A DNA stretch of 64,000 bases from an uncultured Spartobacteria bacterium (lineage in GTDB: Bacteria; Verrucomicrobiota; Verrucomicrobiia; Chthoniobacterales; UBA6821): assembly GCA_903868795.1 (NCBI GenBank), contig CAIPWR010000126.1, forward strand, positions 5,172 through 69,171. Direction: 5' to 3'. Below, one piece after another: positions 5,535 through 45,273 of this stretch. Every line of letters begins with the position of its first letter. The first letter of the stretch is position 1. The notes beneath the pieces are model-generated. The model was not told the DNA's origin, ran no database searches, and was given only the letters and a program-made list of their open reading frames with translations. The translations under genes and the position numbers were made by a program.

Positions 5535-5590
5535 TCCGCGCCGTATTCGGGGCACATACTTTGCCGTCGGTTTTAGCTTGGGGGATTTCA

Positions 5591-6032: not shown

Positions 6033-6103
6033 AGCGGGTGAAGGGAATCGAACCCTCGTCTCAGGCTTGGGAAGCCCACATTCTACCATTGAACCACACC
6101 CGC
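6033..6103 (-). tRNA. tRNA-Gly (anticodon CCC)
   Basis: Reverse complement GCGGGTG-TG-GTTCAATGGTAGAAT-G-TGGGC-TTCCCAA-GCCTG-AGACG-AGGGTTCGATTCCCTT-CACCCGC-T folds as a cloverleaf. 7-bp acceptor stem, T-loop GGTTCGATTCC, anticodon loop TT-CCC-AA. Confidence 0.9.
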
Positions 6104-6111
6104 AGTGGGTT

Positions 6112-6645
6112 TTAATTCCAAGAGTTGATGATGTTGGTTTGGGAGCCGTTCGTCCAGACAGTCCAGACTGCGATGTGCTTGGTCAGGTTAGTTGTCGATC
6201 CAGCAACTCCAAAGCTCAGGCCGTTGGTATAATTTGTATCGAGCATGACACTATAGGTGTTGCTCCAAGGATCTAGGAAACCTCCTGAATTCGTTCCCCC
6301 TTTGCCGTTCTTCCAGAGGCTTGATTCCAGGAAGATCAAGCCTCTGGGGTTGTTGCTGGCATCATTGGTGGTGCAAAGAATGGCCGTAGCATTTGTATCC
6401 ATATTGGTTGTCGGGAAATTAGGCAGGCGGCCATACTCTGTCTCGTAAGCCGTGATCGCCGTGGCGATCTGAACCGCCTGGTTCTTGGCCGTGGTTTTCT
6501 TGGCTGAATTAATGGCAGATTGTGCAGCGGGGAAAAGCAGTCCCATCAGTACGGCAATGATCGCTATCACCACGAGCAGTTCGATCAGTGTGAATGCTGA
6601 AGCCGTTGCGCTGGATCTTGAGGGGGAAGTGGGAAGGAATTTCAT
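6112..6645 (-). CDS. prepilin-type N-terminal cleavage/methylation domain protein (type II secretion/pseudopilin-like)
   Basis: ORF 6112..6828 trimmed to Met62. AFTLIELLVVIAIIAVLMGLLFPA is the classic prepilin methylation motif. Confidence 0.75.
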   Translation of the reverse strand: MKFLPTSPSRSSATASAFTLIELLVVIAIIAVLMGLLFPAAQSAINSAKKTTAKNQAVQIATAITAYETEYGRLPNFPTTNMDTNATAILCTTNDASNNPRGLIFLESSLWKNGKGGTNSGGFLDPWSNTYSVMLDTNYTNGLSFGVAGSTTNLTKHIAVWTVWTNGSQTNIINSWN

Positions 6646-9154: not shown

Positions 9155-9234
9155 GGTCAGCACGACCCAAGCAAGGCTTTCCAAGCGCAAAACACTTCTA
9201 CTCCAGAGCTACCTTGTCATAGTCTTTAGGGATC

Positions 9235-10209
9235 GTGAGCAGTATATCCCACCCCATCTCCATTGACCATCTGGAGGAAATCTACCATTCCCCGTTCTTC
9301 GACCTCATCCAGCGTTCCCGCTCGGTCCATCTCCAGAACTGGGATGAGGATAATGTCCAGCTCTGCACCCTGCTGAGCGTGAAGACCGGCGGCTGCAGTG
9401 AGGACTGCTCATACTGTGCCCAGAGCTCCCGCTACAAGACCGGCATCGAGGCCGGTAAGCTCATGGGATGTGATGAGATCCTGCCGCTTGCCAAGCAAGC
9501 CCGGGAAAGCGGCACGACCCGTTTCTGCATGGGTGCTGCTTGGAAGGGGGTCAAGTCGGGTGACAGCCGCTTCAACTCTATGCTCGAGACTGTGCGTGAG
9601 GTCAGCAAGCTCGGCATGGAGGTCTGTGTAACGCTAGGACAACTTGGTGACGAAGAGGCCCGCCAGCTGAAGGAAGCGGGCGTGACCGCCTACAATCACA
9701 ACATCGATACCTCACCCGAGTTCTACCCGCAGATTGTCTCCAGCCATACCTTCAACGACCGCCTCAACACCATCTCCTCCGTCCAGAAGGCCGGCATGGC
9801 TGTCTGCTGCGGCGGCATCATCGGCATGGGCGAGACGGAGCGCGATCGCCTGCGGATGCTCGAGGTGCTCTGCGGGTTCAATCCTCCTCCGGAGAGTGTT
9901 CCCATCAACTGCCTTATGGCCATGCCCGGCACCCCGCTGGAGGAACAGCCGGTTGTCGACATTTTCGAACTTGTACGCCTAATCGCCACAACCCGAATCA
10001 TGCTGCCGAAGGCCCGCATTCGACTCTCCGCTGGGCGCACCCGTCTCACCCGCGAAGGGCAGGCACTCTGCTTCTTCGCAGGTGCAAACTCCGTGTTCTA
10101 CGGCGACAAACTCTTGACGGCGGCCAATCCCGGCACCAATGACGATCTCGACCTGCTCCGCGCCATCGACCTTGCTCCCATGGAGCAGGGCATGCCCGCA
10201 GCGGTTTAA
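9235..10209 (+). CDS. bioB: biotin synthase
   Basis: 324 aa. Radical-SAM motif CSEDCSYCAQS and the YNHNIDTS block. Confidence 0.9.
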   Translation: MSSISHPISIDHLEEIYHSPFFDLIQRSRSVHLQNWDEDNVQLCTLLSVKTGGCSEDCSYCAQSSRYKTGIEAGKLMGCDEILPLAKQARESGTTRFCMGAAWKGVKSGDSRFNSMLETVREVSKLGMEVCVTLGQLGDEEARQLKEAGVTAYNHNIDTSPEFYPQIVSSHTFNDRLNTISSVQKAGMAVCCGGIIGMGETERDRLRMLEVLCGFNPPPESVPINCLMAMPGTPLEEQPVVDIFELVRLIATTRIMLPKARIRLSAGRTRLTREGQALCFFAGANSVFYGDKLLTAANPGTNDDLDLLRAIDLAPMEQGMPAAV

Positions 10210-12554: not shown

Positions 12555-13472
12555 TTATGGAAGCTTAGGCAGGCTCGGCAGACCGCCCCCCATCTGATGG
12601 CTTAACTCGGCGATGCCTAATCCCGCTGCCGTTCCCAACAAGAGAAGGAGGCCACAGCAAAGCAATCCCGGAAGGGTGATGGCGAGCGTGGCCCTCCAAC
12701 CTTCGGTGTGTTGTGCCTCTTTCAGACCAATGATGATCGCGTAGGCGCCCCAGATGACCCCAACGAGGCTACCGCAGAGCGGGATGATATTCAGGACAGC
12801 CGCGCTGGCTTGTGCATAGCAGATGACTCGGAATGTGGTTTCAAATGGCCTGTTGGCACCGCCGAGAAGTTTCAAGCAGAGATGTGTAATGCCTGAGGAG
12901 ATGAAGGCGCTCACGACATAGAGAGCAGGGGAGAGGAGGACTGAGCCTATCAGCGCCACGGAGAAAGATGATCCTGTGGGCAGGGATGTGGCATGAGGGA
13001 TCTTGGGGGCAAACAGCGCAGGATTCATTGTTGTCATCGCAATCTGGTAGAAAGCGGAGACGGCAAACATGGCGCTGCTGACCAACACGAAATAGAGGAG
13101 GGGATTGGCCAACCCTCCCGTCTGCTTCATGGTGGCGAAGGTCTGTGTCGGGCGTAAAAGAACATCGCCGATCGTCTGCGAGAGTGCGGCGAAAATACCG
13201 ATCCTCTCACGCTCTTCCCAAGCAGGGCCCTCCCCGTCGACGGGCAGAGTAGCTGTGAGGGGCTCATCCATGCTTGCAGGAGTAAGCGATGGCGGGGGAA
13301 GCTCCATTCCCCATTGTGGGGCCATCTCTCCGAGAGGTTTCCACTCGGCCATGCCATCGCGCCAGGCAAGATCGCCCGCCGCGAAGCGTCCTGAATGAAT
13401 CCCCTCCCGAACCGCTGCTTCGCTGAACGAGCCTAGGGACTGGTGGTTGCGCGCAATATGGATGTTGGACAT
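12555..13472 (-). CDS. GYF_2 (DUF4339) plus Yip1-type membrane domain protein
   Basis: 305 aa. N-terminal GSFSEAAVREGIHSGRFAAGDLAWRDGMAEWKPLGEM. Multi-TM Yip1-like C-terminal half. Confidence 0.6.
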   Translation of the reverse strand: MSNIHIARNHQSLGSFSEAAVREGIHSGRFAAGDLAWRDGMAEWKPLGEMAPQWGMELPPPSLTPASMDEPLTATLPVDGEGPAWEERERIGIFAALSQTIGDVLLRPTQTFATMKQTGGLANPLLYFVLVSSAMFAVSAFYQIAMTTMNPALFAPKIPHATSLPTGSSFSVALIGSVLLSPALYVVSAFISSGITHLCLKLLGGANRPFETTFRVICYAQASAAVLNIIPLCGSLVGVIWGAYAIIIGLKEAQHTEGWRATLAITLPGLLCCGLLLLLGTAAGLGIAELSHQMGGGLPSLPKLP

Positions 13473-14440: not shown

Positions 14441-15121
14441 ATGACCACTTCCTCCTCCGTTCATCTGTGCGCCCGAGGGCTTTGCCAAACTTACGATTTG
14501 GGAGAGACGAAGCTTCAGGTGCTTAAGGGCGTCAACCTTGATGTGAATATGGGTGAGGTGGTCTTTCTCCGCGGCGCATCCGGAGCGGGCAAATCAACCC
14601 TCCTCTACATCCTTGCTGGTCTGGAGCATCCGAGGGAGGGAAGTGTCGAGTTCGAGGGCGAGCAACTCTTTGCTCTCAAGGGGGATCGTGAAGCCCTCCT
14701 GCGCAACCGCCGCATGGGATTTGTTTTTCAATCCTATTTTCTTTTGCCGGAACTGACGGCCCTGGAAAATGTCCTGCTTCCCTCCATGCTGGGAGGCAGG
14801 AAAAACCACGCCCATGCCCGCAGCCTGCTCGACCGGGTAGGACTTTCAGGACGCCTCGACCATCTTCCCTCGCAACTCAGCGGTGGAGAGCAGCAGCGTG
14901 TGGCGATTGCCCGCGCCCTGGTGAATGATCCCAGCATTCTTTTTGCCGACGAACCCACGGGGAATCTCGACTCGGTGACGGGAGCAGGAATCATCGAACT
15001 GCTTCTGAGCCTTGCCCGACAGGATGGACGAACATTCGTAGCCGTTACGCACGACCCTGCCCTTGCCGCCCTCGGTGACCGTCAGCTTTACCTGCGGGAT
15101 GGTCACTTGGAACCCGCCTGA
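14441..15121 (+). CDS. ABC transporter ATP-binding protein (LolD/MacB-ATPase-like)
   Basis: ORF 14297..15121 trimmed to Met49. Walker A GASGAGKST, signature LSGGEQQRVAIARAL, Walker B ILFADEPTGNLD. Confidence 0.85.
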   Translation: MTTSSSVHLCARGLCQTYDLGETKLQVLKGVNLDVNMGEVVFLRGASGAGKSTLLYILAGLEHPREGSVEFEGEQLFALKGDREALLRNRRMGFVFQSYFLLPELTALENVLLPSMLGGRKNHAHARSLLDRVGLSGRLDHLPSQLSGGEQQRVAIARALVNDPSILFADEPTGNLDSVTGAGIIELLLSLARQDGRTFVAVTHDPALAALGDRQLYLRDGHLEPA

Positions 15122-33549: not shown

Positions 33550-33939
33550 ATGAAGCGATTTCTTCCCCTCCTGGCCGTATTGCTTGTATCGGCCTGCACT
33601 TCCCACCTGCAGCAGAAAGAAAATTTTCTTCGTGAAGCCGGGTTCCTAGCCGTGCGGCCGACAACCCCCAAGCAGATCGCGAAAGCCCAGGCCCTCCATC
33701 CGGGGAAGATCACTCAGATCACGCGCAAGGGACACACGCTTTATGTCTTCTCGGATCCCAGCAAGCATCTGCTCCTTCTTGGAGGCACTACCCAGTTTGA
33801 GCACTATCAGCAGATCCTTTATAAAAAGCAGGTCGATCCCGCGATCGAGAACCATGCCTTTGACAAGGCCCTCGAGTATGATGACTACGCCTGGGGCGGC
33901 ATGATGGGCCCCTACTTCGGCATGCCGATGTTCTACTAA
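33550..33939 (+). CDS. lipoprotein of unknown function, tandem paralog A
   Basis: 129 aa. Lipobox LLVSAC. Homologous along its length to the next gene. Confidence 0.55.
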   Translation: MKRFLPLLAVLLVSACTSHLQQKENFLREAGFLAVRPTTPKQIAKAQALHPGKITQITRKGHTLYVFSDPSKHLLLLGGTTQFEHYQQILYKKQVDPAIENHAFDKALEYDDYAWGGMMGPYFGMPMFY

Positions 33940-33952
33940 CCACCACCACTCC

Positions 33953-34354
33953 ATGAAACAATCCATCCGCCACCTCCCGCTTCTTGCCCTCCTGTTCCTT
34001 GCGCTTGTTCTGTCGGCGTGCGCCTCTCATCTGCAGAAGAAGGAGAGCTTCCTGACTCAAGCGGGCTTTCGCACGGTGAAGCCATCGACCCCCGAGCAGA
34101 TCGCCCACTTCCAATCTCTGCCTTCCGGTCACATCCGCCATGAAGAGCGGAATGGGAAGACCCTCTATATGCTGGCCGACAGCTCCAAGAACCTCCTGCT
34201 GGTTGGCGGCGAGGCCGAGTACGCACAATACCAGGAGATCCTCTACTCCAAGGAAGTGGAGCCGGGTAAGAAAGCGGACAAGATCACCAAGGGGATCGCT
34301 AACATCTGGGATCAAGGCTGGGGATCCGTCCTCGGCTCCATGGTCCCGCAATAG
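33953..34354 (+). CDS. lipoprotein of unknown function, tandem paralog B
   Basis: 133 aa. Lipobox LVLSAC. Shares blocks SHLQxKExFLxxAGF..V.P.TP.QIA and LLL.GG...Y..YQ.ILY.K.V.P with paralog A. Confidence 0.55.
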   Translation: MKQSIRHLPLLALLFLALVLSACASHLQKKESFLTQAGFRTVKPSTPEQIAHFQSLPSGHIRHEERNGKTLYMLADSSKNLLLVGGEAEYAQYQEILYSKEVEPGKKADKITKGIANIWDQGWGSVLGSMVPQ

Positions 34355-34376: not shown

Positions 34377-34946
34377 ATGAACGTTCCACGCATCCTGGCC
34401 TTCGGTGGCAGTCTCCGTAAGGATTCCTACAATCAGAAACTTGCTGCTATCGCCGCCGAGGGAGCGAGAGAAGCGGGCGCCGAGGTCACGCTGATCTCGT
34501 TGCGTGATTTTCCGATGCCGCTCTTTGATCAGGACCTCGAAGCTGCGCATGGGATGCCTGCTGAGGCCAAGCGCCTCAAGGAACTCTTCCTCTCGCATCA
34601 GGGGCTACTGATTGCCTCGCCGGAATACAATAGCGGCTACTCCGCCGCTCTGAAGAATGCCATCGACTGGGTTTCTCGAAGCGAAACGTCCGACGAACCT
34701 GCACTCTCAGCCCTGGCGGGTAAAAGCGCCGTCATCATGGCCGCCTCTCCCGGAGGCCTCGGCGGTCTCCGCGGATTGGTTCCCCTCCGCATGCTCCTTG
34801 GCAACCTCGGCATCACCCTGCTCCCTGACCAGATGGCGATCCCCTCGGCCTTTCAGGCCTTCGGCCCGGACGGCCACCTCGTCGATCCCAAACAGGAAGA
34901 GAAGGTGAAAGCCCTCGGTGCAGCGCTAGCGGTGCAGTTGAAGTAG
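34377..34946 (+). CDS. NADPH-dependent FMN reductase family protein
   Basis: ORF 34140..34946 trimmed to Met80. ILAFGGSLRKDSYNQKLA...LLIASPEYNSGYSAALKNAIDWVSR is the FMN_red signature. Its last 49 codons are duplicated at 36270-36416. Confidence 0.8.
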   Translation: MNVPRILAFGGSLRKDSYNQKLAAIAAEGAREAGAEVTLISLRDFPMPLFDQDLEAAHGMPAEAKRLKELFLSHQGLLIASPEYNSGYSAALKNAIDWVSRSETSDEPALSALAGKSAVIMAASPGGLGGLRGLVPLRMLLGNLGITLLPDQMAIPSAFQAFGPDGHLVDPKQEEKVKALGAALAVQLK

Positions 34947-35023
34947 CAACTCGTTTGATTCGCGGCTGAACTGGAATCTGCCATCCCACGCGCCTCTGCG
35001 TGAGTCATAGTTTAAAGCGTTGT

Positions 35024-36121
35024 TTATCGAAGGGAGACGTTGCTCAGGAGTTGGAAGAGAGGCTCATTGATGAAGAAGTTCGACTTCCCCCTCTTCTCTT
35101 TGCGGAGGATTCCTTCGGCGACGAGCTGCTCCAGATATTTCGATGCGGTGACACGCGAGACTCCGAGATCCTTCTCCACGAACTCGATCTTCGTGTAGGG
35201 ATGGTGGAAGAGATTGTTGAGCAGATCCTGCGAATAGATTTTCTCAAGCCGCGTCCGGATCCGCTCCTTCGTCTCCTGCATGAGATCGCGGAGCGACTTC
35301 ACCAGGGCGATCTCACTCCGGGCGGTCATGGAGACGCCGCGGACCATGTAGAGACACCACTCCTTCCAGAGTCCCTTGTCCCGGGCTTCCTGCAGGAGCC
35401 TGTAGTATTCCCCCTTGGTCGTGGTGATGTAGCGGCTCAGGTAGAGCACAGGGAGATCGAGGAGTCCCTCCCTCTGCAGGATCAACAAATTCAGGATACG
35501 CCCCGTCCGACCGTTCCCATCGTAGAAGGGATGAATGCTCTCGAACTGGTGATGGGCGATTGCCATGCGAAGGATCGGGTTCAGATCATCCTCGGCATGG
35601 AGAAATGAGATGAGATTGTCCATCAGGGCTTCCACCTCGGCGGCACTTTGCGGTGGCTCATAGACAATCCGGCCTGTGGCGGGATTTTTCAGAACAGTTC
35701 CGGGGAGTTTCCGCAGGCCTGCCTTTCTCGGTTCGATCCGCGCCTGCACATCCAGCAGCGTTTTCAGCCGGATCAGACCGCTCTGACGGACATCATCGAA
35801 TCCCACTTGCAGGGCCTCGACATAGTGACGCACCTCCTTCACAGCACCGGGAGCAGCCTCCTCCTCACGGTCCGCGAAGATCTCATCGTGGCTCGTGATG
35901 ATATTCTCGATCTCGGAGCTGTCCTTGGCCTCCTGAATGGCAAGCGTACTGATCAGGATCGACTGGTTTGGCAGGGATTCGCAGAGCCCTTTTAGTTCGG
36001 CAAGATGGCGCTCCGCCTCGGCAACAGCCATCCAGACCTCTCGGCAATCGAGCATCGAGAGATCAGAGATGGGAAGAGGAGATAGCGTGGACATAGATAG
36101 AAACGGTCGAAATCTTTTCAC
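35024..36121 (-). CDS. fic: Fic family protein (AMPylase-type) with N-terminal inhibitory motif and C-terminal wHTH
   Basis: 365 aa. Catalytic loop HPFYDGNGRTGR. SSEIEN fits the (S/T)xxxE(G/N) auto-inhibition helix. C-terminal GVSRVTASKYLEQLVAEGIL. Confidence 0.9.
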   Translation of the reverse strand: MKRFRPFLSMSTLSPLPISDLSMLDCREVWMAVAEAERHLAELKGLCESLPNQSILISTLAIQEAKDSSEIENIITSHDEIFADREEEAAPGAVKEVRHYVEALQVGFDDVRQSGLIRLKTLLDVQARIEPRKAGLRKLPGTVLKNPATGRIVYEPPQSAAEVEALMDNLISFLHAEDDLNPILRMAIAHHQFESIHPFYDGNGRTGRILNLLILQREGLLDLPVLYLSRYITTTKGEYYRLLQEARDKGLWKEWCLYMVRGVSMTARSEIALVKSLRDLMQETKERIRTRLEKIYSQDLLNNLFHHPYTKIEFVEKDLGVSRVTASKYLEQLVAEGILRKEKRGKSNFFINEPLFQLLSNVSLR

Positions 36122-36269
36122 GAATCACAAAATGTGTAAAGAAAAACTCTTATTCTATGCGTGATTCCTGCTTCATGCATAGAACATGGCGTCCGCATCG
36201 ACACACTCGGGAACTCATGCAAAGAAAAGTGTTTTCTCTATGCATATCCACCGCAAACGGTCTCCCTTG

Positions 36270-36416
36270 GGCAACCTTGGCATCACCCTGCTCCCCGACC
36301 AGATTGCGATCCCCTCGGCCTTTCAGGCCTTCGGCCCGGACGGCCACCTCGTTGACCCCAAACAGGAAGCCAAAGTCAAAGCCCTCGGCGCCACGCTGGT
36401 AGAGAATCTGAAGTAT
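36270..36416 (+). pseudogene. orphan duplicate of the FMN-reductase 3' end (last 48 codons, stop mutated to TAT)
   Basis: GNLGITLLPDQIAIPSAFQAFGPDGHLVDPKQEAKVKALGATLVENLK compared with residues of 34800-34946 gives 42/48 aa identical. There are about 20 nt mismatches in 147 by hand alignment. The offset is exactly 1470 nt with no indels. No upstream coding part exists. Confidence 0.75.
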
Positions 36417-36557
36417 GCTTGGGATTTATGGCGCAAGGCGGTGTTGCTGCTCGCTTGCAGTAGTTCACTACAGCGGCACTCGCGACGCCTAGCCCTATCC
36501 AAACTTCCAACCCGTAGAATACACGGTAGCCTTTCAGAAATGGCTTACTTTTGGATA

Positions 36558-36586
36558 TTGACTTACTTTTTTGCCGTTCGTAAGAT
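36558..36586 (+). promoter_or_regulatory. sigma70-like promoter TTGACT-N17-TAAGAT upstream of the antitoxin gene
   Basis: TTGACT at 36558-36563, a 17-nt spacer, TAAGAT at 36581-36586. The ATG at 36597 lies only 10 nt after the -10 element, giving a near-leaderless transcript. The 9-bp direct repeat CTTACTTTT at 36544 and 36562 overlaps the -35. Confidence 0.35.
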
Positions 36587-36596
36587 TTATTCAAGC

Positions 36597-36830
36597 ATGA
36601 CTACTGAAACCATCACCTTCACCACCAAGGGACAGGTTGTGATCCCTGCTCCAATCCGCCGTATGTTCGGCATTGAGGAGGGTACCAAAGGGGCGGTAAC
36701 CGTGACGGAAGATGGGATCCTGATCCGCCCCATCACGAAGGCCTACATCAGCGGTCTGCGCGGATCGCTGAAGCACCTCCCCCTGATGGAAGTGCTGACC
36801 GAGGATCGCGTGCGCGAACGAGATCTCTAA
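36597..36830 (+). CDS. AbrB/MazE/SpoVT-family antitoxin (VapB-like)
   Basis: 77 aa (Met138 of track ORF 36186..36830). TKGQVVIPAPIRRMFGIEEGTKGAVTVTEDGILIRP is the swapped-hairpin SpoVT/AbrB motif. Ends 1 nt before the PIN gene. Confidence 0.75.
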   Translation: MTTETITFTTKGQVVIPAPIRRMFGIEEGTKGAVTVTEDGILIRPITKAYISGLRGSLKHLPLMEVLTEDRVRERDL

Positions 36831-36831
36831 A

Positions 36832-37239
36832 ATGGCTGCCAAGGTACTCGATAGCTGGGCGCTCCTAGCGTTCTACAAAGACGAACCATGCGCTTCCGAA
36901 GTGGAAAAACTTATCCAGCAGGCTGCTGACAAAGGAAGGCCCCTCCTCCTCAGCGTGATCAACTGGGCTGAGATCCACTACTCCCTCGAGAGAGCTGGTG
37001 GCAAAGCTGTCGCTGAGAGGGTCGCCGAGCAAATCGCCGAACTTCCGATCCAAGTGGTCGGCGTTGGTGATGATATGAAGACCGCTCGAACTGCCGCTGC
37101 ATTCAAGGCAGCGAACAAGATGAGTCTTGCTGATGCCTTTGCCGCGGCCCTAGCCAAGGAGAAGAAAGCCGAACTCGTAACAGGTGATCCTGAGTTCAAG
37201 GCATTAGAAGGTCAGATCAAGATCCATTGGCTCAAGTAA
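36832..37239 (+). CDS. vapC: PIN-domain toxin (VapC-like)
   Basis: 135 aa. N-terminal VLDSWALLAF (Asp), INWAEIHY (Glu), LADAFAAALA and TGDPEF acidic positions are typical of PIN/VapC. Confidence 0.8.
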   Translation: MAAKVLDSWALLAFYKDEPCASEVEKLIQQAADKGRPLLLSVINWAEIHYSLERAGGKAVAERVAEQIAELPIQVVGVGDDMKTARTAAAFKAANKMSLADAFAAALAKEKKAELVTGDPEFKALEGQIKIHWLK

Positions 37240-37250
37240 CCGTACTTTTT

Positions 37251-39182
37251 ATGACTGCTCGATGGCATTTCAATAAGCACAGACCTTGTGATCGGATGAG
37301 GGATCCGGAAAACGAAGCGTTTTTTACGGCCGAAGGTTTGGAAAACCTGAGCGAGGCATTGGTGAGAGAGGGAATTCAAAATTCTCTGGATGCCTCGGAT
37401 TCAAACAGCGGAACAAGGAACGTTCATGTCAAAATCAGATATGTCAGCCATGGCCTACCCGGGGTCTCAAATTATTTGAAGGAGGCGTTCCTACCGGTGT
37501 TGGACAATTTTTCTAAAGGTTTAGGTGTCGACAAAAGCGTTATTGAAAAAAACCTGAGTGAAACAGGTGTGTCTTTAGTTTTTGAGGACTTTGGTACCAA
37601 GGGCCTCACTGGTGATGTGCGTGAGGTTCGGATAGAACCATCGCTCCAAAATGCCTTCTTCAGTTTCTTCCGAGCGGAGGGAAGATCAGGCAAAGATGGA
37701 GACCGTATCGGGCGATGGGGTATTGGAAAACAGGTCTTTCCCACCAGCAGCCAACTCCATGCAATCCTTGGGGTTACTGTCAGGAGAGAAAGTCCCGAAA
37801 AAGTTCTAATGGGGAGCGCCGTGGTTCGGAGCCATTGCGTCGATGACCAAGATTATCAGCCAGATGCGTGGTTCGGTATCAGGGGTGATGAGCAGTCTGC
37901 AGTCATGCCTTTAGAACATACCGATGGCGTTGAAACTTTCTGTGGCATCTTTGGTTTGGAGAGGGGCTCGCGCGCAGGGCTTTCTGTTTTGATACCCGCC
38001 GTTGATCCTAGAATTGAGGTCAAAGATCTTATCAACGGTGTTCTCAAGAGCTTTTTTTGGACCGTTCTCAAAGGTGAACTATCTGTGTCGATTGTCGGAC
38101 CAGATGGAGAGATCAAGGAAATCAATAATTCCACAATTTCCGATCATCTCCTGAGTCTTGAGCCGAAAGATGCAGGTATCATTAATTGTGCAGTTTGGGC
38201 GGCAAACATGGAGGCAGAGAAGATGGTTATACTTGAAGGTAGTGAAGCCAGGATCCCGAAATGGCCGGAATCCAGAGACAAACTTCTGACAGAGGGAAAA
38301 ATCGAGGAGATCCGATCTTCGCTAGAGAGTTTGGGCAGGGTTGGAGTACGTGTGCCGGTTCTTGTTAGGGTGAAAGGCAGTGAAGAAGAAACTAAAGCGC
38401 ACTTTGACGTTTTTTTGGAAAGGACCAAGGAACCGGAATCCAGAACAGTTTTTCTAAGAGACGGGATAGTCATCACAGATGTCAGGTCTCCCAGCATCGC
38501 CGGGAGTAGGAGCCTAGTTGTTGCAAGCCACGAAAAAATCGCGCGCCTCCTAGGCGACTCAGAAGGTGTAAACCATACTCAATGGCAAAAAGACTCCCCA
38601 AAGTTTCACAACAAATACGTCTACGGACCCGACACCATAACATTTGTCCAGAGAAGTGCTTATGAAATCTCGAGAAGCGTTCAAGGGGCTGATTCAAGCG
38701 GGGACCCCACATTGCTAAGGGATTATTTCTCGATACCAGAAGAATCCGGAGAAAAAGAAAGAGGGAAGAAAGAAAGGCCTGGAATTAAGCCTGCTCTACC
38801 GATTCCACCCCCACCTCCACCGCGGAAATCTTGGTACACAGTCCAGCAAGATGCCCGAGGAGGCGGATTTGTTATTGGTGCTGGAGACGAGGATTCCACA
38901 AAAATAACTTTCCCTTTTTCTCTGCGTATAAAACTCGGTTACGCCGTCCGAAGCGGAAATCCGATCAAAAAATGGAGTCCTGCCGACTTTGAAGTGAACA
39001 AAGATCCAATATGCTCAAATCCTGATAACAAAGGTATTGAGATAGAGGCCGTTGACGGGAACGAGCTTACAATAAAGATACTTTCACACGATTTTACATT
39101 TGGTCTTCAAGGTTTTGATAAACACCGGGATCTTGAGGTCAGGGTCAATAAGCTGACTGATAACAATGAAGAGGACGTTTAA
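37251..39182 (+). CDS. divergent GHKL (Bergerat-fold, MORC/HATPase_c_3-like) ATPase with large uncharacterised C-terminal region; cassette ORF1
   Basis: Track ORF 37227..39182 (TTG start); ATG at 37251 preferred. In 651-aa numbering: N-box EALVREGIQNSLDA (E48, N52, D55), G1-like VFEDFGTKGLTG (D121, G123, G126), G2-like GRWGIGKQVF (162-171). Poly-Pro linker PIPPPPPP (525-532) and a final domain of about 117 aa. Confidence 0.6.
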   Translation: MTARWHFNKHRPCDRMRDPENEAFFTAEGLENLSEALVREGIQNSLDASDSNSGTRNVHVKIRYVSHGLPGVSNYLKEAFLPVLDNFSKGLGVDKSVIEKNLSETGVSLVFEDFGTKGLTGDVREVRIEPSLQNAFFSFFRAEGRSGKDGDRIGRWGIGKQVFPTSSQLHAILGVTVRRESPEKVLMGSAVVRSHCVDDQDYQPDAWFGIRGDEQSAVMPLEHTDGVETFCGIFGLERGSRAGLSVLIPAVDPRIEVKDLINGVLKSFFWTVLKGELSVSIVGPDGEIKEINNSTISDHLLSLEPKDAGIINCAVWAANMEAEKMVILEGSEARIPKWPESRDKLLTEGKIEEIRSSLESLGRVGVRVPVLVRVKGSEEETKAHFDVFLERTKEPESRTVFLRDGIVITDVRSPSIAGSRSLVVASHEKIARLLGDSEGVNHTQWQKDSPKFHNKYVYGPDTITFVQRSAYEISRSVQGADSSGDPTLLRDYFSIPEESGEKERGKKERPGIKPALPIPPPPPPRKSWYTVQQDARGGGFVIGAGDEDSTKITFPFSLRIKLGYAVRSGNPIKKWSPADFEVNKDPICSNPDNKGIEIEAVDGNELTIKILSHDFTFGLQGFDKHRDLEVRVNKLTDNNEEDV

Positions 39183-39912
39183 TTTTACAGGGCGTAAGAA
39201 TATCAACAGGGAAGATGTCGCTGTGACACTTGTTCGTACCCCAACAGCACTGTCATTCAACGCCAATCCCAATTTGGAGGGCTATAGTTTTCCTGGGGAT
39301 GCGGATATATGGATTGAAATATACCGCGGAAACCTCATTAAACAATGCTATTGGGGAAAGGTTTCGCAGCCTGAAGCTCCGCTAGATCGCGATCTCAGCG
39401 TATTTGAAGTCCCCGACGGAATTCAATTCAGGTTGCGCGTCGTGAGTCTTGCTGATGGCAATCTGCTAAAGATGCTTGGCGAGGCCGATCACGTTACGTC
39501 AAAGGATACAGAGGATAATCCAGACAATAGAAAGCCATTGATCACACCGGTTCCAGATGATCTGGGGCAACAGCTTTGGAAGATCGATTTCATCGCAGAT
39601 CCGCCGGTTCTTCTGATTAACAACCAAGCCAAAGATGGCTGGAAGGACATAGCCCGATCCAGTGTGTTTATAGCTTTGGTGTATCCTCAAGTCATGAGAA
39701 GCATGTTGTCCAAAATCCTGATTGAGGATGAATGGGACGAAGATGGAGCAGATTGGCAGGATAATTGGATGCACTTTGCCAAGCGAAACTACACCGCCAA
39801 AGTTTTACCCGCAGTCTCCGATCATGAAGGAAGAGAGCGATGGATCGAGGATGCAGTGGATGCATTTGCATCCATAAAGAATCTCAAAGACCTATGGGAC
39901 GCGAACAGCTAG
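39166..39912 (+). CDS. hypothetical protein, cassette ORF2 (no recognisable domain)
   Basis: 248-aa ORF whose ATG lies 17 nt inside ORF1 (translational coupling). Acidic, Trp-rich C-terminal half EDEWDEDGADWQDNWMHF. Lower-GC codon usage, like its neighbours. Confidence 0.6.
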   Translation: MKRTFNFTGRKNINREDVAVTLVRTPTALSFNANPNLEGYSFPGDADIWIEIYRGNLIKQCYWGKVSQPEAPLDRDLSVFEVPDGIQFRLRVVSLADGNLLKMLGEADHVTSKDTEDNPDNRKPLITPVPDDLGQQLWKIDFIADPPVLLINNQAKDGWKDIARSSVFIALVYPQVMRSMLSKILIEDEWDEDGADWQDNWMHFAKRNYTAKVLPAVSDHEGRERWIEDAVDAFASIKNLKDLWDANS

Positions 39913-39918
39913 ACTAAC

Positions 39919-40641
39919 ATGAATATTCGCCGTTTTAACGATAAAGGATTGGCAGCATTCAGGAATTACTTGGATGAGGTGAAATCTGATCCGACCTTGT
40001 CTGTACCAACCAATCTTCTAGAAGACGACGAATGCACTGAAATTATTTCCTCCAAGGTGGAATTATCGGCTCGTTTACTGCCCACAAGAATGGAGGCAGG
40101 TACTTTTCTATTAGAGATTGTAGAAAAAATTGGGCTTACTACTCCCGAAAAAGATGTGGGTTTTTGGTCGTGGATGGCGCTGGTCTTTTTTGAATCTCTT
40201 TGCCCTGTGGATCGGGCTGGAAAACGTAAAATGGGTGATAAGTCCAGATGTATACTTGAGCTTCGTCACGATCGCTTCTACAGGCATCTACTTTTGGGCC
40301 CATTCCTGATTGTTCGGGCGCATAAAGATAATCCTGATCGGGCGGTTGTCCTTTTGAGTAATCCGCCAAGTACACCCGGAGATATTTCCGAGCAGTTTTC
40401 TTCAAGATTGGAGCAGATAACCAACAAGGGCCTCGTTGAGCTTCTTTCAAGACTCTACTTTGATCCGATACACAAAACGATTAGACGAGGCGCTGCTGGA
40501 AAAGGAGGGGGTTCCGTGAGACGATTATCTATGCTAATCAATCAACTAGATCTCACCTACTACCTCTATGGCATGACAGGCGAGGCCTTGGCTCAGCTTT
40601 TGCCCAAAGAATTCGACAAGTTTCGGAAAGCTGCAGACTAA
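39919..40641 (+). CDS. hypothetical protein, cassette ORF3 (no recognisable domain)
   Basis: 240-aa ORF starting 6 nt after ORF2 and ending 6 nt before the methyltransferase. No motif I can place. Confidence 0.6.
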   Translation: MNIRRFNDKGLAAFRNYLDEVKSDPTLSVPTNLLEDDECTEIISSKVELSARLLPTRMEAGTFLLEIVEKIGLTTPEKDVGFWSWMALVFFESLCPVDRAGKRKMGDKSRCILELRHDRFYRHLLLGPFLIVRAHKDNPDRAVVLLSNPPSTPGDISEQFSSRLEQITNKGLVELLSRLYFDPIHKTIRRGAAGKGGGSVRRLSMLINQLDLTYYLYGMTGEALAQLLPKEFDKFRKAAD

Positions 40642-40647
40642 ACAAAG

Positions 40648-42132
40648 GTGAGTTTCCTTGTAATTGATCTGTTCGCTGGGCCTGGAGGGCTTGGGGAAGG
40701 TTTTGATTCCCTTTCGGATGAGAAGGGTAATGCCGCATTCAAAATAGCCCTTTCCATTGAATGTGATGATTTTGCCCACCGAACCCTTGAGCTAAGAAGT
40801 TTCTACAGACAATTCCACAAGAAGGATGTTCCAGGGGACTACTACCGTTACCTGAGAGGTGAGATTTCACGGGAAATACTTTTTTTGAAAAATCCTCGCG
40901 AGGCAGATCAAGCTATGGCTATAGCTGCAAAGATTCGCCTAGGGGTCGCGGAAGCACATGAGGTTCACAAAAGAATAAGCAGCGCTCTAGCTGCACGTGG
41001 AAAAAACCCTTGGGTACTTATAGGAGGGCCTCCATGCCAGGCTTATTCACTTGTGGGAAGATCGCGAAGAAGAGGCGAATGCCGAGCAAAGTTCGAAAGC
41101 GATGAAAAGCATCTCCTCTATAAGCAATATTTACAAATCATCCATGATCATCGTCCGGCAGTCTTTGTGATGGAGAATGTGAAAGGGATCCTTTCGGCCA
41201 AATTGGGAGGAGACAGGATTTTTTCTCGTATCTGTAACGATCTTGCTGCAGAGGGATATGATCTTTATGGCTTAAATGGAAAAGAACCCAGATCCACAGA
41301 GCTATTTGGAAACGGAGGCTGGGATCCTTCTATGTTTGTAGTTCGATCAGAGGATTATGGTATTCCTCAAGCAAGACACAGAGTTTTCATCGTAGGGCTC
41401 AGCCGTGAATACTTTCCCGGGAAAGTTTCACCATCCGCTGTTCAACTTTTGGCTTCCGGAAGACAAGTGACCGTTGAGGAAACAATCCGAGATATGCCGG
41501 AAATATGGAGCGGTCTCTCATCCGATCGAGGGGATACAGTAGGCTGGTTAAAGGCGCGTGATCGGGGCCTTAAAAAGGCCGGATATTCGAGGGTGGCATC
41601 CACAATGATGCCTGAGGCGGGCCACGGAGGACGGTTTATTGCGGGTAAGACGCCTGTATCCTTCAAACGCGAATGGTTTAATGATGCACGTATAAAAGGG
41701 GTTATTCAGCACGAGTCACGCACGCATATGGACGGCGATGTTTCGCGTTATGCGTTTGCTGCTGCTGTTGCACCCCAGTATGGATGCAGCCCCTCGATCC
41801 ATGATTTCCCAAAAGCCCTGCTCCCCGCTCATAAAAATGTTCATTCTGACGAAGGTGAAACCATCCCATTTGCTGATCGCTTCAGGGTTCAAATGTTCGG
41901 GGGCCCTTCCACAACGATCACGAGCCACATCTCCAAAGACGGGCACTACTACATTCATCCTGATCCGGAACAGGCTAGGAGCCTTACCGTTAGAGAGGCT
42001 GCACGATTGCAGACGTTTCCAGACAATTACTTTTTTGAGGGTCCAAGGACTCAGCAATACCACCAAGTAGGTAATGCTGTGCCGCCTTTGTTGGCGCATC
42101 AGATAGCAGCCATCGTTCATCGGTTGCTCTAG
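40648..42132 (+). CDS. dcm: DNA (cytosine-5)-methyltransferase
   Basis: 494 aa, GTG start. Motif I DLFAGPGGLGEGF, motif IV GGPPCQAYS (Cys130), motif VI FVMENVKG, motif VIII IPQARHRVFIVG, motif IX TVREAARLQTFPD, motif X QVGNAVPPLLA. Confidence 0.92.
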   Translation: MSFLVIDLFAGPGGLGEGFDSLSDEKGNAAFKIALSIECDDFAHRTLELRSFYRQFHKKDVPGDYYRYLRGEISREILFLKNPREADQAMAIAAKIRLGVAEAHEVHKRISSALAARGKNPWVLIGGPPCQAYSLVGRSRRRGECRAKFESDEKHLLYKQYLQIIHDHRPAVFVMENVKGILSAKLGGDRIFSRICNDLAAEGYDLYGLNGKEPRSTELFGNGGWDPSMFVVRSEDYGIPQARHRVFIVGLSREYFPGKVSPSAVQLLASGRQVTVEETIRDMPEIWSGLSSDRGDTVGWLKARDRGLKKAGYSRVASTMMPEAGHGGRFIAGKTPVSFKREWFNDARIKGVIQHESRTHMDGDVSRYAFAAAVAPQYGCSPSIHDFPKALLPAHKNVHSDEGETIPFADRFRVQMFGGPSTTITSHISKDGHYYIHPDPEQARSLTVREAARLQTFPDNYFFEGPRTQQYHQVGNAVPPLLAHQIAAIVHRLL

Positions 42133-42282
42133 CTGTAATGACTGACTCCGTTACCAACGAGTAGCGTTTCAGTAAAAGGCTCAGCAAGTTTGGATGCAGG
42201 GCAAGGCGCGTGAGAGCGGGCGTAGTAGTCCTACGCCAACCGAGCGGCAACACAGCCCTGCGCCAAAATCGCTAGCCGCTAG

Positions 42283-45273
42283 CTACGCAGTCCGCCCACA
42301 GCAGGACTTGTACTTCTTGCCGCTACCACACGGACAGGGATCATTCCGTCCCACTGTCTTCGGAGCCCTCTGCGCCGCAGGCTTCTGCTGCATCGCCTGT
42401 TCAAACGCGGTCTGTGGTGCGGTCTGCGTGTTATCGGCTTCTCCCTCATTAGCCCCGATGTGTCCCTCGGAGCCGAGCAGATCCTTCTGCATGAGGTGAC
42501 GCGGGAGGGAGGCGAGCAACTGCTCAAACGCCTGGAGGTTGGTCGTGGAGCGGAAGAGGTTGTTCAGGACCTCGTTCTTGATGCTCTCCATCAGCTCCAC
42601 AAACATGGCGTAGGCCTCGGTCTTGTACTCGGTGAGCGGATCCTTCTGACCGTAGGCACGGAGGTAGACGGCCTCGCGGAGTCCATCCATGGCGTAGAGG
42701 TGCTCCTGCCAGAGGCGGTCGACGGCGTTCAGGATGACATACTTCTCGAGTCCGGAGCGGGCGGCCTCGTCCTCGATCGCAGCCTTGCGGTCGTAGGCCT
42801 CGACGAGCGTCTTGGCCAGCCACTCGCCGTTCTCTTCGATCTCGCGAGTCTCGAAAGCACACTTCTCCTTGGTGAGTCCTACGGGGAAGGTGGAGTTCAC
42901 CCACTGGAGGAGTCCGGCGACATCAGGCTCGGAATCACTGCTTTCGGTCGTGAGGAAGGCAGCGACTTTCTTCGGCACGACTTCATTGATGACCTCATGA
43001 ATGAGGGTGCGAGGATTCTCGGAATCCATGACCTCGTTGCGGTAGCCGTAGATGACTTCGCGCTGTTGGTTCATCACGTCGTCGAACTCGAGGGTCCGAC
43101 GGCGCATGAGGTAGTTCCGCTGCTCGACACGCTTCTGGGCGGTCTCGACGCTCTTGTTGAGCCAGGGATGCTCGAGCTCCTCGCCCTCCTGCATGCCGAA
43201 GGTCTCCATGATCTTGGTCATGCGGTCGGCTGCGCCGAAGTTCCTCATGAGGTCGTCCTCGAAGCTGATGTAGAAGCGGGAACGGCCCGGATCTCCCTGA
43301 CGCGCGCAGCGTCCGCGCAACTGGCGGTCGATGCGGCGCGACTCATGCCGCTCGGTGCCCAGGACGAAAAGTCCGCCCAACTCGGCGACGCCTTCACCGA
43401 GCTTAATGTCAGTTCCGCGGCCGGCCATGTTCGTCGAGATGGTGACGGCTCCACGCATACCGGCGCGCGAGATGATCTCGGCCTCCTGCATGTGGAACTT
43501 GGCGTTCAGCACGGTGTGGGGAATATGTTCGCGCTTGAGCATGCGGCTCAGGACTTCGGAAGCCTCGACGCTGGCGGTACCTACAAGGATCGGCTGGCCA
43601 CGGCCGTGGGAGGCCTTGATCTCCTCGATGGCGGCGGCCATCTTCTCGCGGCGCGTCTTGTAGATGCGGTCGTTCTCGTCGAGACGGGCGACGGGGCGGT
43701 TCGTCGGGATGACGGTGACATCGAGTCCGTAGATGTCGTGAAATTCATTCGCCTCGGTCTCGGCCGTGCCGGTCATGCCTCCGAGCTTCTCGTAGAGACG
43801 GAAGTAGTTCTGGATGGTGATCGTCGCCATCGTCTGGGTCTCGCGGTCGATCTGGACCCCTTCCTTGGCCTCGACGGCCTGGTGGAGCCCATCGCTCCAG
43901 CGGCGACCCGCCATCTTGCGGCCGGTGAAGGTATCGACAATGACGACCTTGTTCTCCTCGACGACATATTCGACATCCTTCTCGTAGAGGCAGTAGGCCT
44001 TCAGCAACTGGGCAATGTTATGCATCCGCTCGGCGGAGTGGTCGCAGTGCTGCTGTGCGGCGGCTTTCTTGGCGGCCTTCTCGGAATCGGAGAGCGCGGT
44101 GTCGGTCTCGATGTCCGCGAACTCCGTGAGGAGATCGGGGAGGACGAAGGCGTTCGGGTCATCGGGGTTCAGGAAACTCCGGCCCATCTCGGTGAGGTCG
44201 GCCTCCTGCTGCTTCTCTTCGATGGTGAAGTAGAGTTCTTCCTTCAACGCCACGAGCGCGTCCTTGGAGGTATCCTGGTAGAACGAGAGCTCGGCCTTGT
44301 CGGTGAGGCGGCGCAGCTCGGGATCCTCCATGGCGCGGAGGAAGCCCTTGTTGCGGGGCTGGCCGAGCTTCACCTTGAAGAGGGCCATGCCGGCGGCTTC
44401 TTTTTCGCCCTTCGCGAAGAGTTCCTTGGCGTCGGCGACGAGTTTGTTGACGTGGGCTGTCTGCTTGCGGACAAGCTGTTCGACCAACGGCTTGAAGCGG
44501 TCGTACTGGTGCGTCGAAACGGTGGCCGGCCCACTGATGATGAGCGGGGTGCGGGCCTCGTCGATCAGGATGGAGTCGACCTCATCGACGATGGCGTAGT
44601 AATGCCCGCGCTGGACCTGCTGCTCGCGGCTGGTCGCCATGCCGTTATCTCGGAGGTAATCGAAGCCGAACTCGCTGTTCGTTCCGTAGGCGATGTCGCA
44701 CTCGTACTGGGCACGGCGCTCCTCTGGGGACTGGTCGTGCTGGATGATGCCGGTGGTAAGTCCCAGGAAAGCGTAGAGTTGACCCATGCACTCGGCGTCG
44801 CGGCGGGCGAGGTAGTCGTTCACTGTCACGACATGGACGCCGAGCCCGGTGAGGGCATTGAGATAAACGGGGAGGGTCGCCACGAGGGTCTTTCCCTCGC
44901 CGGTGGCCATCTCGGAGATGCGTCCCTTGTGGAGCACCATGCCGCCGACCAGCTGGACGTCGAAGTGAACCATGTTCCAGGTGTACTCGTAGTCGCAGAC
45001 CATGAACTGCATCCCGACCATGCGGCGGGCGGCGTTCTTCACGACTGCGAAAGCCTCGGGGAGGATCTCGTTCAGGCGCTTCTGCAGAAGGGCGGGATCC
45101 TGAATCTGGGAAAGCTCGGCCTTCCAGGCAGCGGTCTTCTCACGGAGTGCCTCGTCGGGGAGCGACTGGAGTGACTGCTCGATCTCGTTGATCTTGGCAA
45201 CAAGCGGGAGCATCCGGCGCACTTCGCGCTGGTTTTTCGATCCGACGATTTTCTTTAAGATCCAGTTAAACAT
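42283..45273 (-). CDS. secA: preprotein translocase ATPase SecA
   Basis: 996 aa. MATGEGKTLVATLP Walker A, DEVDSILIDEARTPLIISG, C-terminal Zn motif CPCGSGKKYKSCCG. Confidence 0.95.
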   Translation of the reverse strand: MFNWILKKIVGSKNQREVRRMLPLVAKINEIEQSLQSLPDEALREKTAAWKAELSQIQDPALLQKRLNEILPEAFAVVKNAARRMVGMQFMVCDYEYTWNMVHFDVQLVGGMVLHKGRISEMATGEGKTLVATLPVYLNALTGLGVHVVTVNDYLARRDAECMGQLYAFLGLTTGIIQHDQSPEERRAQYECDIAYGTNSEFGFDYLRDNGMATSREQQVQRGHYYAIVDEVDSILIDEARTPLIISGPATVSTHQYDRFKPLVEQLVRKQTAHVNKLVADAKELFAKGEKEAAGMALFKVKLGQPRNKGFLRAMEDPELRRLTDKAELSFYQDTSKDALVALKEELYFTIEEKQQEADLTEMGRSFLNPDDPNAFVLPDLLTEFADIETDTALSDSEKAAKKAAAQQHCDHSAERMHNIAQLLKAYCLYEKDVEYVVEENKVVIVDTFTGRKMAGRRWSDGLHQAVEAKEGVQIDRETQTMATITIQNYFRLYEKLGGMTGTAETEANEFHDIYGLDVTVIPTNRPVARLDENDRIYKTRREKMAAAIEEIKASHGRGQPILVGTASVEASEVLSRMLKREHIPHTVLNAKFHMQEAEIISRAGMRGAVTISTNMAGRGTDIKLGEGVAELGGLFVLGTERHESRRIDRQLRGRCARQGDPGRSRFYISFEDDLMRNFGAADRMTKIMETFGMQEGEELEHPWLNKSVETAQKRVEQRNYLMRRRTLEFDDVMNQQREVIYGYRNEVMDSENPRTLIHEVINEVVPKKVAAFLTTESSDSEPDVAGLLQWVNSTFPVGLTKEKCAFETREIEENGEWLAKTLVEAYDRKAAIEDEAARSGLEKYVILNAVDRLWQEHLYAMDGLREAVYLRAYGQKDPLTEYKTEAYAMFVELMESIKNEVLNNLFRSTTNLQAFEQLLASLPRHLMQKDLLGSEGHIGANEGEADNTQTAPQTAFEQAMQQKPAAQRAPKTVGRNDPCPCGSGKKYKSCCGRTA

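Follow-up and report, generated by a model that had tools for sequence, protein, structure and literature searches.

In a 64,000-nt stretch of DNA from an uncultured Spartobacteria bacterium (contig CAIPWR010000126.1; hereafter, the window), the 3' end of an FMN-reductase gene (FMN_red) is present in two directly repeated copies, which enclose a single gene of the SoFic type of phage-defence Fic proteins. We propose, with a probability of about 0.58, that this duplication is a 3'-end displacement scar, produced by one homologous crossover and one illegitimate join at a hot spot between FMN_red and secA. The locus looks like an insertion that brought a replacement tail for FMN_red and displaced the original one, that is, like a scar of host recombination and not the att site of a self-mobile element. 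The features on which the argument depends are the following.

34377-34946, plus strand: FMN-reductase gene, 189 aa, intact, apparently chimeric (Pfam FMN_red, 5.2e-40).
34800-34883, plus strand: proximal part of copy 1, near-identical to the proximal part of copy 2; it holds a 47-nt identical block (34836-34882).
34884-34946, plus strand: distal part of copy 1, the gene tail that would have arrived with SoFic; 15 mismatches to copy 2 at offsets 84-144.
34947-35023, no strand: 77-nt spacer between the convergent stops of FMN_red and SoFic, a probable part of the imported segment.
35024-36094, minus strand: SoFic-type Fic AMP-transferase gene, 356 aa (PADLOC SoFic, 1.9e-112, near full length).
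36095-36269, minus strand: SoFic upstream (putative promoter/operator) region; 36095-36241 accompanies SoFic in other genomes and 36252-36269 is the non-homologous junction.
36270-36416, plus strand: copy 2, the presumed displaced original 3' end of FMN_red (codons 142-189), with the stop changed to TAT and the 5' part absent.

The two copies (34800-34946 and 36270-36416) lie at an offset of 1470 nt and align without indels, with 20 mismatches over 147 nt, 14 of them at the third codon position, and with 42 of 48 residues identical; the stop codon is TAG in copy 1 and TAT in copy 2. With the exception of the count at third codon positions, these figures (the mismatches as about 20), as well as the absence of a 5' part in copy 2, had been given in an original prediction made from the letters of the window alone, and the ungapped alignment confirms them. 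In this alignment the homology between the copies has a sharp left edge at 34800/36270; the repeat search called 34800-34945 and 36270-36415 (87% identity, spacing 1470), and in a BLAST alignment the repeat is ~4 nt longer leftward, with a 1-nt indel (34796-34945 against 36265-36415). The 47-nt identical block (34836-34882 and 36306-36352) has exactly two matches in the window, with 0 expected by chance. Pattern searches of the 64-kb window revealed no third copy of the repeat, and no tRNA was found near it. The sole gene between the copies is that of the 356-aa Fic protein. No integrase or transposase was found in the open reading frames (ORFs) scanned with Pfam at 31.7-33.4 kb and 34-62 kb, nor any recombinase in the PADLOC, PHROGs and NCBIfam scans of the neighbouring ORFs, in agreement with the earlier statement that only fic lies between the repeats and that no recombinase is present.

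The mismatches between the copies are distributed in a polar manner: offsets 0-84 contain 4 of them and offsets 84-144 contain 15 (4/84 versus 16/63 when all 147 nt with the stop codon are counted; Fisher p = 4e-4). In the proximal parts the copies are mutual nearest relatives, differing by 4 mismatches from each other and by 6-16 from all other relatives. As to the distal parts, that of copy 1 is nearest to the locus L087 (5 mismatches; here and below L numbers denote the loci fetched for comparison) and then to L181 (7), while that of copy 2 is nearest to L089 (9) and then to L179 (11). Judged by this pattern, the repeat is a mosaic of a recently duplicated proximal part and a distal part in which two old alleles face each other. 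The distal divergence is largely synonymous, which argues for two functional alleles and not for decay of a duplicate, and the still intact reading frame of copy 2 suggests a young pseudogene fragment.

The FMN-reductase gene itself is composed of 423 nt of the species type at the 5' side, followed by copy 1 as the last 147 nt. Compared with L087, which belongs to the same species, the 5' part is 98.8% identical and the 3' 144 nt just 89.6%. The end of copy 1, '...QLK*QLV*', aligns with '...QLKKQLG*' of L005, which points to a 193-aa tail layout shortened by a TAG at codon 190. This end reads TAG CAA CTC GTT TGA, and the TAG with the next four bases (TAGCAAC) is common to L181, from another species, so that the TAG at codon 190 may be an old allele and not a mutation specific to the window. 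Copy 2 is of the 189-aa tail type and is followed by a hairpin element; the same '...NLK* AWDL...' tail type is present in L089 and L092, and the particular ending '...ATLVENLK' occurs in none of the best 120 FMN_red homologues. The homology between the copies would end at the stop codon because they represent two different allelic tail types. Two other explanations of this end, namely that the inserted element's own copy finished at the stop codon and that site-specific insertions, one after another, had cut both copies short at one and the same '...LK' codon, were rejected on account of the same allelic endings of the 189-aa and 193-aa proteins.

Beyond copy 2 the window continues up to the next core gene with the following features.

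36410-36513, plus strand: el, as we call the hairpin element, structured, ~100 nt, the apparent native downstream element of the 189-aa-type FMN_red (covariance model, 86.5 bits).
36597-36830, plus strand: VapB, a predicted AbrB/MazE-type antitoxin (Pfam MazE_antitoxin, 9.6e-09); with VapC, it forms the first genes of what would be the older island.
36832-37239, plus strand: VapC, a predicted PIN toxin (Pfam PIN, 5.5e-16).
37227-42132, plus strand: the remaining island, with genes for a 651-aa protein, 248-aa and 240-aa proteins and a C5 DNA methyltransferase (40648-42132), described from composition and from PADLOC, Pfam and NCBIfam.
42179-42283, minus strand: second copy of el, directly after the SecA stop, at the right edge of the hot spot (covariance model, 102.6 bits).
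42283-45273, minus strand: secA, the right-hand core gene (Pfam SecA domains), of which the last ~280 nt (42284-42560) appear recombinant.

A locus without fic was found in another species. In L179 and L180 the stop of a complete 189-aa FMN_red leads straight into el, after which come VapB (77 aa), VapC (135 aa) and a further gene; this locus is collinear with positions 36270-37553 of the window at 82.6% identity, and the spacing from the stop to vapB is 182 nt there and 180 nt in the window. Such an arrangement indicates that a complete gene originally ended in copy 2 and that a fic-less 'empty site' exists. It also answers in the affirmative the question raised with the original prediction, whether the FMN-reductase gene is directly followed by the sequence right of 36416 when fic is absent. 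Relatives that lack fic and still carry both copies, which would have spoken against an insertion, were not seen, those without fic having a single copy of the segment. The other side of the event is represented by L005, where FMN_red is followed by SoFic with the same junction as in the window and without the second repeat. The window aligns with it gap-free from ~34350 to ~36250 (the SoFic of L005 is 97.5% identical in amino acids and ~90% in nucleotides), and the homology ends at ~36251-36266, beyond which the L005 sequence differs. The 77-nt spacer is also collinear with that of L005 without gaps, at ~64-78% identity. Thus the fic-less locus of L179/L180 and the collinearity with L005 bear out the claim of an insertion at the FMN-reductase gene's 3' end with a replacement tail, and the different nearest relatives of the distal parts uphold the claim that the copies stem from different genomes, the two tails being of different lineages. 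The repeat-SoFic arrangement was assembled independently in at least eight contigs from several samples with two assembler naming styles, and therefore is not an assembly artefact.

The junctions are of two kinds. The left one is situated in frame inside FMN_red, in or beside the 47-nt identical block. At the right one (36252-36269) the SoFic upstream region is joined to codon 142, with only an imperfect microhomology (CTCC/TTGG) between 'TCTCCCTTGGGCAACC' of the junction and 'GCTCCTTGGCAACC' of the resident sequence. The relatives are uncultured Verrucomicrobia annotated as Spartobacteria or Chthoniobacterales; a metagenome scan with FMN_red gave few close relatives among the matches listed and was useful only for L092, L103 and L124.

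The interval between the convergent core genes FMN_red and secA is a strain-variable defence-island hot spot. In three loci of the same species (L087, L170 and L171) the flanks are 96-98% identical to the window and the cargo differs, being BrnT with McrBC in L087, a SLFN-like helicase set in L170 and an SMR pump with other genes in L171; together with the window this makes four cargo sets. The shortest FMN_red-secA interval in other species is 1.2 kb (L092, with an HNH protein). In comparison with L087, the window has 0-4 mismatches per 100 nt over the upstream genes and most of FMN_red, then 11 per 100 from 34805 onwards and 14 per 61 nt up to the FMN_red stop; L170 and L171 depart from the window from ~34826-34835. 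Accordingly distributed are the protein differences, the same-species FMN_red proteins matching in 138-141 of 141 N-terminal residues and in 37-42 of the 48 C-terminal ones. At the opposite side, secA differs from that of L087 by 18-52 mismatches and gaps per 100 columns in 42300-42500 and by 0-3 in most of the remainder, with one 100-nt bin of 12. The divergence of both flanking gene ends suggests that islands are exchanged together with the ends of the flanking genes.

Similar scars are present in other loci. All fetched loci (~1.9 Mb) were scanned for direct repeats with one copy ending a long ORF. In L002 a second copy of the final 118 nt of secA lies at a distance of 1.27 kb (intact-gene copy 14482-14599, remnant 13209-13326), with 3 mismatches in 75 nt followed by 11 in 43, all 11 distal ones being synonymous (polarity p = 8e-4); the cargo consists of a UPF0175 and DUF3368 toxin-antitoxin pair and DUF2283, and el adjoins the SecA remnant, not the intact gene. 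In L094 the last 126 nt of thiC are repeated (5482-5607 and 6903-7028), with 0 mismatches in 57 nt and then 14 in 70 (p = 2e-4), around a Zeta-toxin-like pair. A weaker candidate is L055, where the 3' end of a 406-aa gene is repeated (6089-6192 and 7217-7335) around genes of two secreted-looking proteins. The distance between the repeats in these three loci is 1-1.4 kb. Two further candidates, L003 and L129, were left out as they are located in repetitive genes. A single site-specific recombinase would not account for the three unrelated targets of the clear cases (FMN_red of the window, SecA and ThiC) with their three unrelated cargoes.

A repeat of another kind is present in the Pirellulales contig L017 (149 nt, 83% identity, 7898-8046 and 9137-9280). 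Going by labels derived from ORF translations, it extends from the end of a putative MarR-like gene across the intergenic region into the first codons of the neighbouring gene; enclosed by it is a putative Old-Yellow-Enzyme-type gene, with an N-terminus similar to that of the pirin-like gene that comes next. It looks like an insertion that duplicated a gene start, not a gene end.

What has been observed, and what a mechanism has to accommodate, comprises an empty site, two copies each collinear with another allele, a mosaic repeat, a hot spot and scans in which no recombinase was found; the order of events, the exact crossover point and the enzymology are what we infer from the sequence. The initial chromosome would have carried FMN_red with the copy-2 tail, then el, then the island from VapBC to the methylase. 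The incoming DNA would have originated from a lineage with SoFic after FMN_red, as in L005 and L181. At its left end a homologous crossover within the 3' end of FMN_red, at or near the 47-nt block, would have given the gene its new distal tail (34884-34946). At the right end, ~175 nt upstream of SoFic, an illegitimate join would have linked the incoming DNA to the chromosome at codon 142, that is, upstream of the crossover, with ~84 nt of resident sequence duplicated as a consequence. The old tail and the hairpin would thereby have become a dead fragment situated 1470 nt further downstream. No recombinase is encoded by the cargo, and host recombination, either homology-facilitated illegitimate recombination (HFIR) or a template switch, would suffice. 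The net effect would be accretion, SoFic being gained and VapBC with the methylase system being kept.

Several points weigh against this scheme. A strain of the same species in the state before the insertion, with the species 5' part, the copy-2 tail and VapBC and without SoFic, was not found: exact look-ups of FMN_red, SoFic and VapC gave the arrangement of the window alone, and all contigs with an identical FMN_red reaching downstream and all contigs with an identical VapC reaching upstream carry SoFic. With 4 differences in 84 nt, the proximal parts diverge more than strains do among themselves (1-2%), which would mean that the event is not very recent, or else that the proximal similarity arose otherwise. 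The microhomology at the junction is imperfect, with two extra bases. HFIR experiments usually delete, not duplicate, recipient DNA. The search for further cases targeted duplications and hence was biased towards them. And, finally, the same structure could have been built in the opposite order.

In the latter case FMN_red with copy 1 and SoFic would have been there first, and a later donor fragment, from codon 142 via el and VapBC to the methylase and into the 3' end of secA, would have entered by a homologous anchor in secA and an illegitimate join upstream of SoFic, the resident DNA between them being deleted and the first ~84 nt being subsequently patched by gene conversion. We hold this order to be unlikely, though it accounts for a number of facts. 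A single step would bring in all the foreign-looking parts (the low-GC island, the 189-aa-type tail with el and the diverged 3' end of secA), and L087, of the same species, has the allele nearest to the distal part of copy 1. An anchor and a join with deletion is, moreover, the usual outcome of HFIR in experiments. The paper PMC5361080 gives just the general model of an anchor plus an illegitimate join. The price is the additional gene-conversion event. Near-identity anchored at the left recurs in two further independent cases, and this recurrence speaks for a property of the insertion event itself; the VapBC arrangement, for its part, is common to L179 at a core-flank-like divergence (76-83%), so it may be old in the lineage.

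Quite unlikely, in our estimation, is a Campbell-type integration, in which a 1470-bp circle made of the 147-nt FMN_red 3' fragment and SoFic would have entered by a single RecA-dependent crossover, with a later pop-out possible, as a mobile cassette without a recombinase. The topology fits such a circle, the direct repeats covering exactly the homologous segment, and both the 47-nt block for the crossover and the empty site are available. It predicts, nevertheless, that the divergence of donor and recipient runs through the whole of the copies, where the first 84 nt are in fact near-identical, cannot do without an illegitimate closure at 36269/34800, and does not agree with the junction of L005, which is devoid of the second repeat. 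The hybrid gene without SoFic, which would be expected as the excision product, is not on record in exact look-ups and among the best 120 FMN_red homologues.

The scars in secA and thiC could be taken for traces of a recurrent cassette-insertion route in these Verrucomicrobia, independent of a recombinase or served by one acting in trans, which would target the last ~60-150 nt of genes, often followed by el, and insert small defence or toxin-antitoxin cassettes with a substitute tail. We find such a route rather improbable. If it existed, its footprints would be the 3-4 cases in ~1.9 Mb (FMN_red of the window, SecA of L002, ThiC of L094 and, possibly, L055), and the repeats left by it could later mobilise the cassette through host recombination, providing an integron-like accretion without an integrase.

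As for the att-like scar of the original prediction, this part of it did not survive. Under the corresponding model, a small element whose attP mimicked the FMN_red 3' end would have been integrated site-specifically by an integrase acting in trans or lost since, the copies being attL and attR. Such elements classically leave direct repeats at the 3' end of a gene together with a replacement tail, the 47-nt identical block could serve as the core, and the empty site is in place. Against this stand the lack of an integrase in or near the element within the Pfam-scanned regions, the size of the cargo (1.3 kb, one gene), the SoFic homologues elsewhere without adjacent FMN_red sequence, L005 without an attR-like copy, plasmid and phage matches limited to distant Fic genes, the mosaic structure, and the same signature at SecA and ThiC with unrelated cargo and repeats, so we regard the model as very unlikely. 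An explanation without any insertion, by a local tandem duplication, a paralogue remnant or a metagenome assembly chimera, is scarcely credible, for even though the population of the window is known from metagenome assemblies only and strain mixtures can yield chimeras, the arrangement recurs in the contigs mentioned above, no k-mer able to cause a false join is shared at 36269/36270, the distal divergence is mostly synonymous and copy 2 is collinear with an orthologous locus.

Judging by its sequence, the cargo that, in the displacement scheme we prefer, entered with the new tail is a phage-defence gene of the SoFic type. The Pfam domains Fic_N, Fic and SoFic-like_C are all above the cut-off, the protein matches SoFic chains in the PDB at 1.7e-78 over residues 4-350, and the motif HPFYDGNGRTGR of its translation satisfies the SoFic consensus HPFx[D/E]GNGRxxR. 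The score with the NCBIfam SoFic equivalog NF046030 (354.7 bits) is below the cut-off of 550, which makes the protein a family-level relative of SoFic and not an equivalog. SoFic has a small downstream antitoxin, AS1, of 47 aa (PMC12249575). In the window the sole ORF downstream of SoFic is one of 58 aa (34813-34989, minus strand), Arg/Gly-rich and running antisense through the FMN_red 3' end. Its start and stop are at matching positions in L005 (10437-10613, minus strand), and about half of it is conserved; the poor conservation can be attributed to the fact that the wobble positions of FMN_red are its second codon positions. This ORF is probably spurious, though placed where AS1 would be expected, and an AS1-like antitoxin downstream of SoFic is accordingly improbable.

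Upstream of SoFic there is an inverted repeat with perfect 8-nt arms, TTCTATGC-N16-GCATAGAA (36153-36184), and a half-site related to it at ~36236-36247. The palindrome is kept in L005 and in SoFic loci elsewhere, and may be a putative operator for the C-terminal winged-helix domain of SoFic itself. Homologues of SoFic with 89-92% amino acid identity occur in other contexts, next to type I restriction-modification genes (L172-L174) and in two further contexts (L175-L178); the nucleotide unit common to SoFic loci in unrelated contexts is the gene with ~147 nt upstream (window 35022-36241), and no FMN_red sequence lies beside SoFic in L172-L178. Compared by BLAST with plasmids and phages, the segment 34800-36600 gave matches to distant Fic genes alone (66-73% identity) and to no known mobile element. 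In the type I operons, on related metagenomic contigs, the homologues, 92% identical, are situated between hsdS and hsdR (L172 3951-9449, L173 2553-9800, L174 265-7551), the adjacent hsdR being split or having a GIY-YIG domain in some of the contigs.

The remnant of FMN_red affects the annotation of its downstream neighbour. Since its stop has become TAT, one open frame (36186/36240-36830, plus strand) extends through the hairpin into vapB, and public gene calls contain a 'MazE antitoxin' of 196-214 aa that fuses the FMN_red fragment, the hairpin and VapB. A promoter-like site is located upstream of vapB at 36558-36586, and the true VapB is probably the 77-aa protein encoded by 36597-36830, as in L179. 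In practical terms, this 'MazE antitoxin' of 196-214 aa should be treated as a false prediction due to the FMN_red remnant. The island that follows has a GC content of 0.45-0.50 against about 0.57. The start of the first gene of the low-GC block is called variously across contigs, giving 561, 628, 643 or 651 aa. The 651-aa protein has a weak PADLOC match to PDC-M33A (2.3e-17), and its N-terminal motif EALVREGIQNSLDA is, by eye, a candidate N-box of a GHKL-type ATPase, a reading supported solely by this match. The 248-aa and 240-aa proteins have no family match in Pfam, NCBIfam, PHROGs or PADLOC. The four-gene block 37227-42132 is possibly an uncharacterised methylase-linked defence system.

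The hairpin el occurs in the window in 2 copies only, as detected with the covariance model, and elsewhere at few gene ends. The copy at 42179-42283 is inverted relative to that at 36417-36506 and is 77% identical to it. It begins right after the stops of secA, of the 189-aa-type FMN_red and of an Fe-superoxide dismutase gene, always in the sense orientation to the gene, and 12 of its 22 predicted pairs show compensatory changes. In relatives, where it comes after FMN_red in L179 and after SecA in several genomes, it is found in L179 (5561-5665), L092 (2895-2999), L103 (2016-2120), L124 (1544-1648), L002 (13100-13204), L087 (12449-12553) and L177 (8996-9102), with a shortened form after FMN_red in L089 and L092. 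It may be a terminator or a 3' untranslated region element of these Verrucomicrobia. A known RNA family or a genome-wide repeat was rejected in view of the lack of an Rfam match and the two copies in the window. An integron cassette with attC was rejected as well, as no IntI was found in the Pfam-scanned ORFs, el follows core genes (FMN_red, SecA, Sod) and not cargo, and has two copies in the window. Nor is el supported as a required target of insertion, L094 having the same scar without it.

Upstream of FMN_red (window 33550-34354) there are two paralogous genes of lipoprotein-like proteins (129 and 133 aa, no family match), and the same is true of L001 and L087. In L002 (8306-11066) and L005 (9606-12475) FMN_red is located between them, so its position relative to these genes has been rearranged between species.

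It is still a matter of debate how hot spots gather defence genes in the absence of dedicated mobility genes. The locus described here records one such addition, with the fic-less arrangement (in another species), the donor-type arrangement and both junctions, and the record points to host recombination through a short homologous anchor in a flanking gene and an illegitimate join. To judge from the polar footprint found again at SecA and ThiC, systematic searches for such scars are feasible; they would allow estimating how often HFIR, known mainly from laboratory transformation, shapes natural genomes. Our claim is a modest one, namely that the scar belongs to an already known kind of recombination scar and is a clean natural record of the addition of a defence gene.

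Of the systems to be compared, defence-island hot spots are formed by conserved core genes that enclose differing defence systems in close relatives. The same holds here for FMN_red and secA in close strains; the difference is that a fragment of the flanking gene has been kept inside the island and records how one cargo joined it. With islands integrated at the 3' end of a tRNA, tmRNA or protein gene, the window shares the 3'-end direct repeats around foreign DNA, the substitute tail and the empty site in relatives, and differs from them in that no integrase was found, the cargo is a single gene that occurs elsewhere without the repeats, and the repeats are 87% identical and mosaic instead of having a defined core with unrelated arms. 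In common with HFIR, one end is anchored by homology and the other joined at microhomology, the non-homologous DNA beside the anchor being trapped. In the window, by contrast, the join would lie upstream of the crossover and duplicate ~84 nt (experimental events usually delete recipient DNA), possibly no more than 47 identical nt acted as the effective anchor, and the mechanism is read from the sequence only. HFIR has been described in bacteria capable of natural transformation (de Vries & Wackernagel 2002; Prudhomme et al. 2002; Meier & Wackernagel 2003, all as cited in PMC5361080) and in E. coli conjugation (PMC3240628).

The closest parallel is the displacement of effector-immunity modules in type VI secretion systems (T6SS), for which HFIR has been proposed, and the orphaned 3' regions in the Rhs and contact-dependent inhibition (CDI) loci (Kirchberger et al. 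2017, PMC5361080); the orphan modules of Rhs and CDI (cdiA-CT/cdiI) are taken here as that paper cites them from Jackson 2009 and Poole 2011. There, as in the window, a new 3' end and linked cargo enter via upstream homology, the old 3' end is kept downstream as an orphan with a conserved-like start and a divergent tail, and no dedicated recombinase takes part. The window differs in that the place of the polymorphic toxin is taken by a housekeeping gene, here that of an FMN reductase (in the other loci SecA and ThiC), that the new tail is functionally equivalent to the old one and brings no new toxin domain, and that a single displacement, and not an array, added as cargo an unrelated gene of the defence or toxin-antitoxin type, which often lies on the opposite strand.

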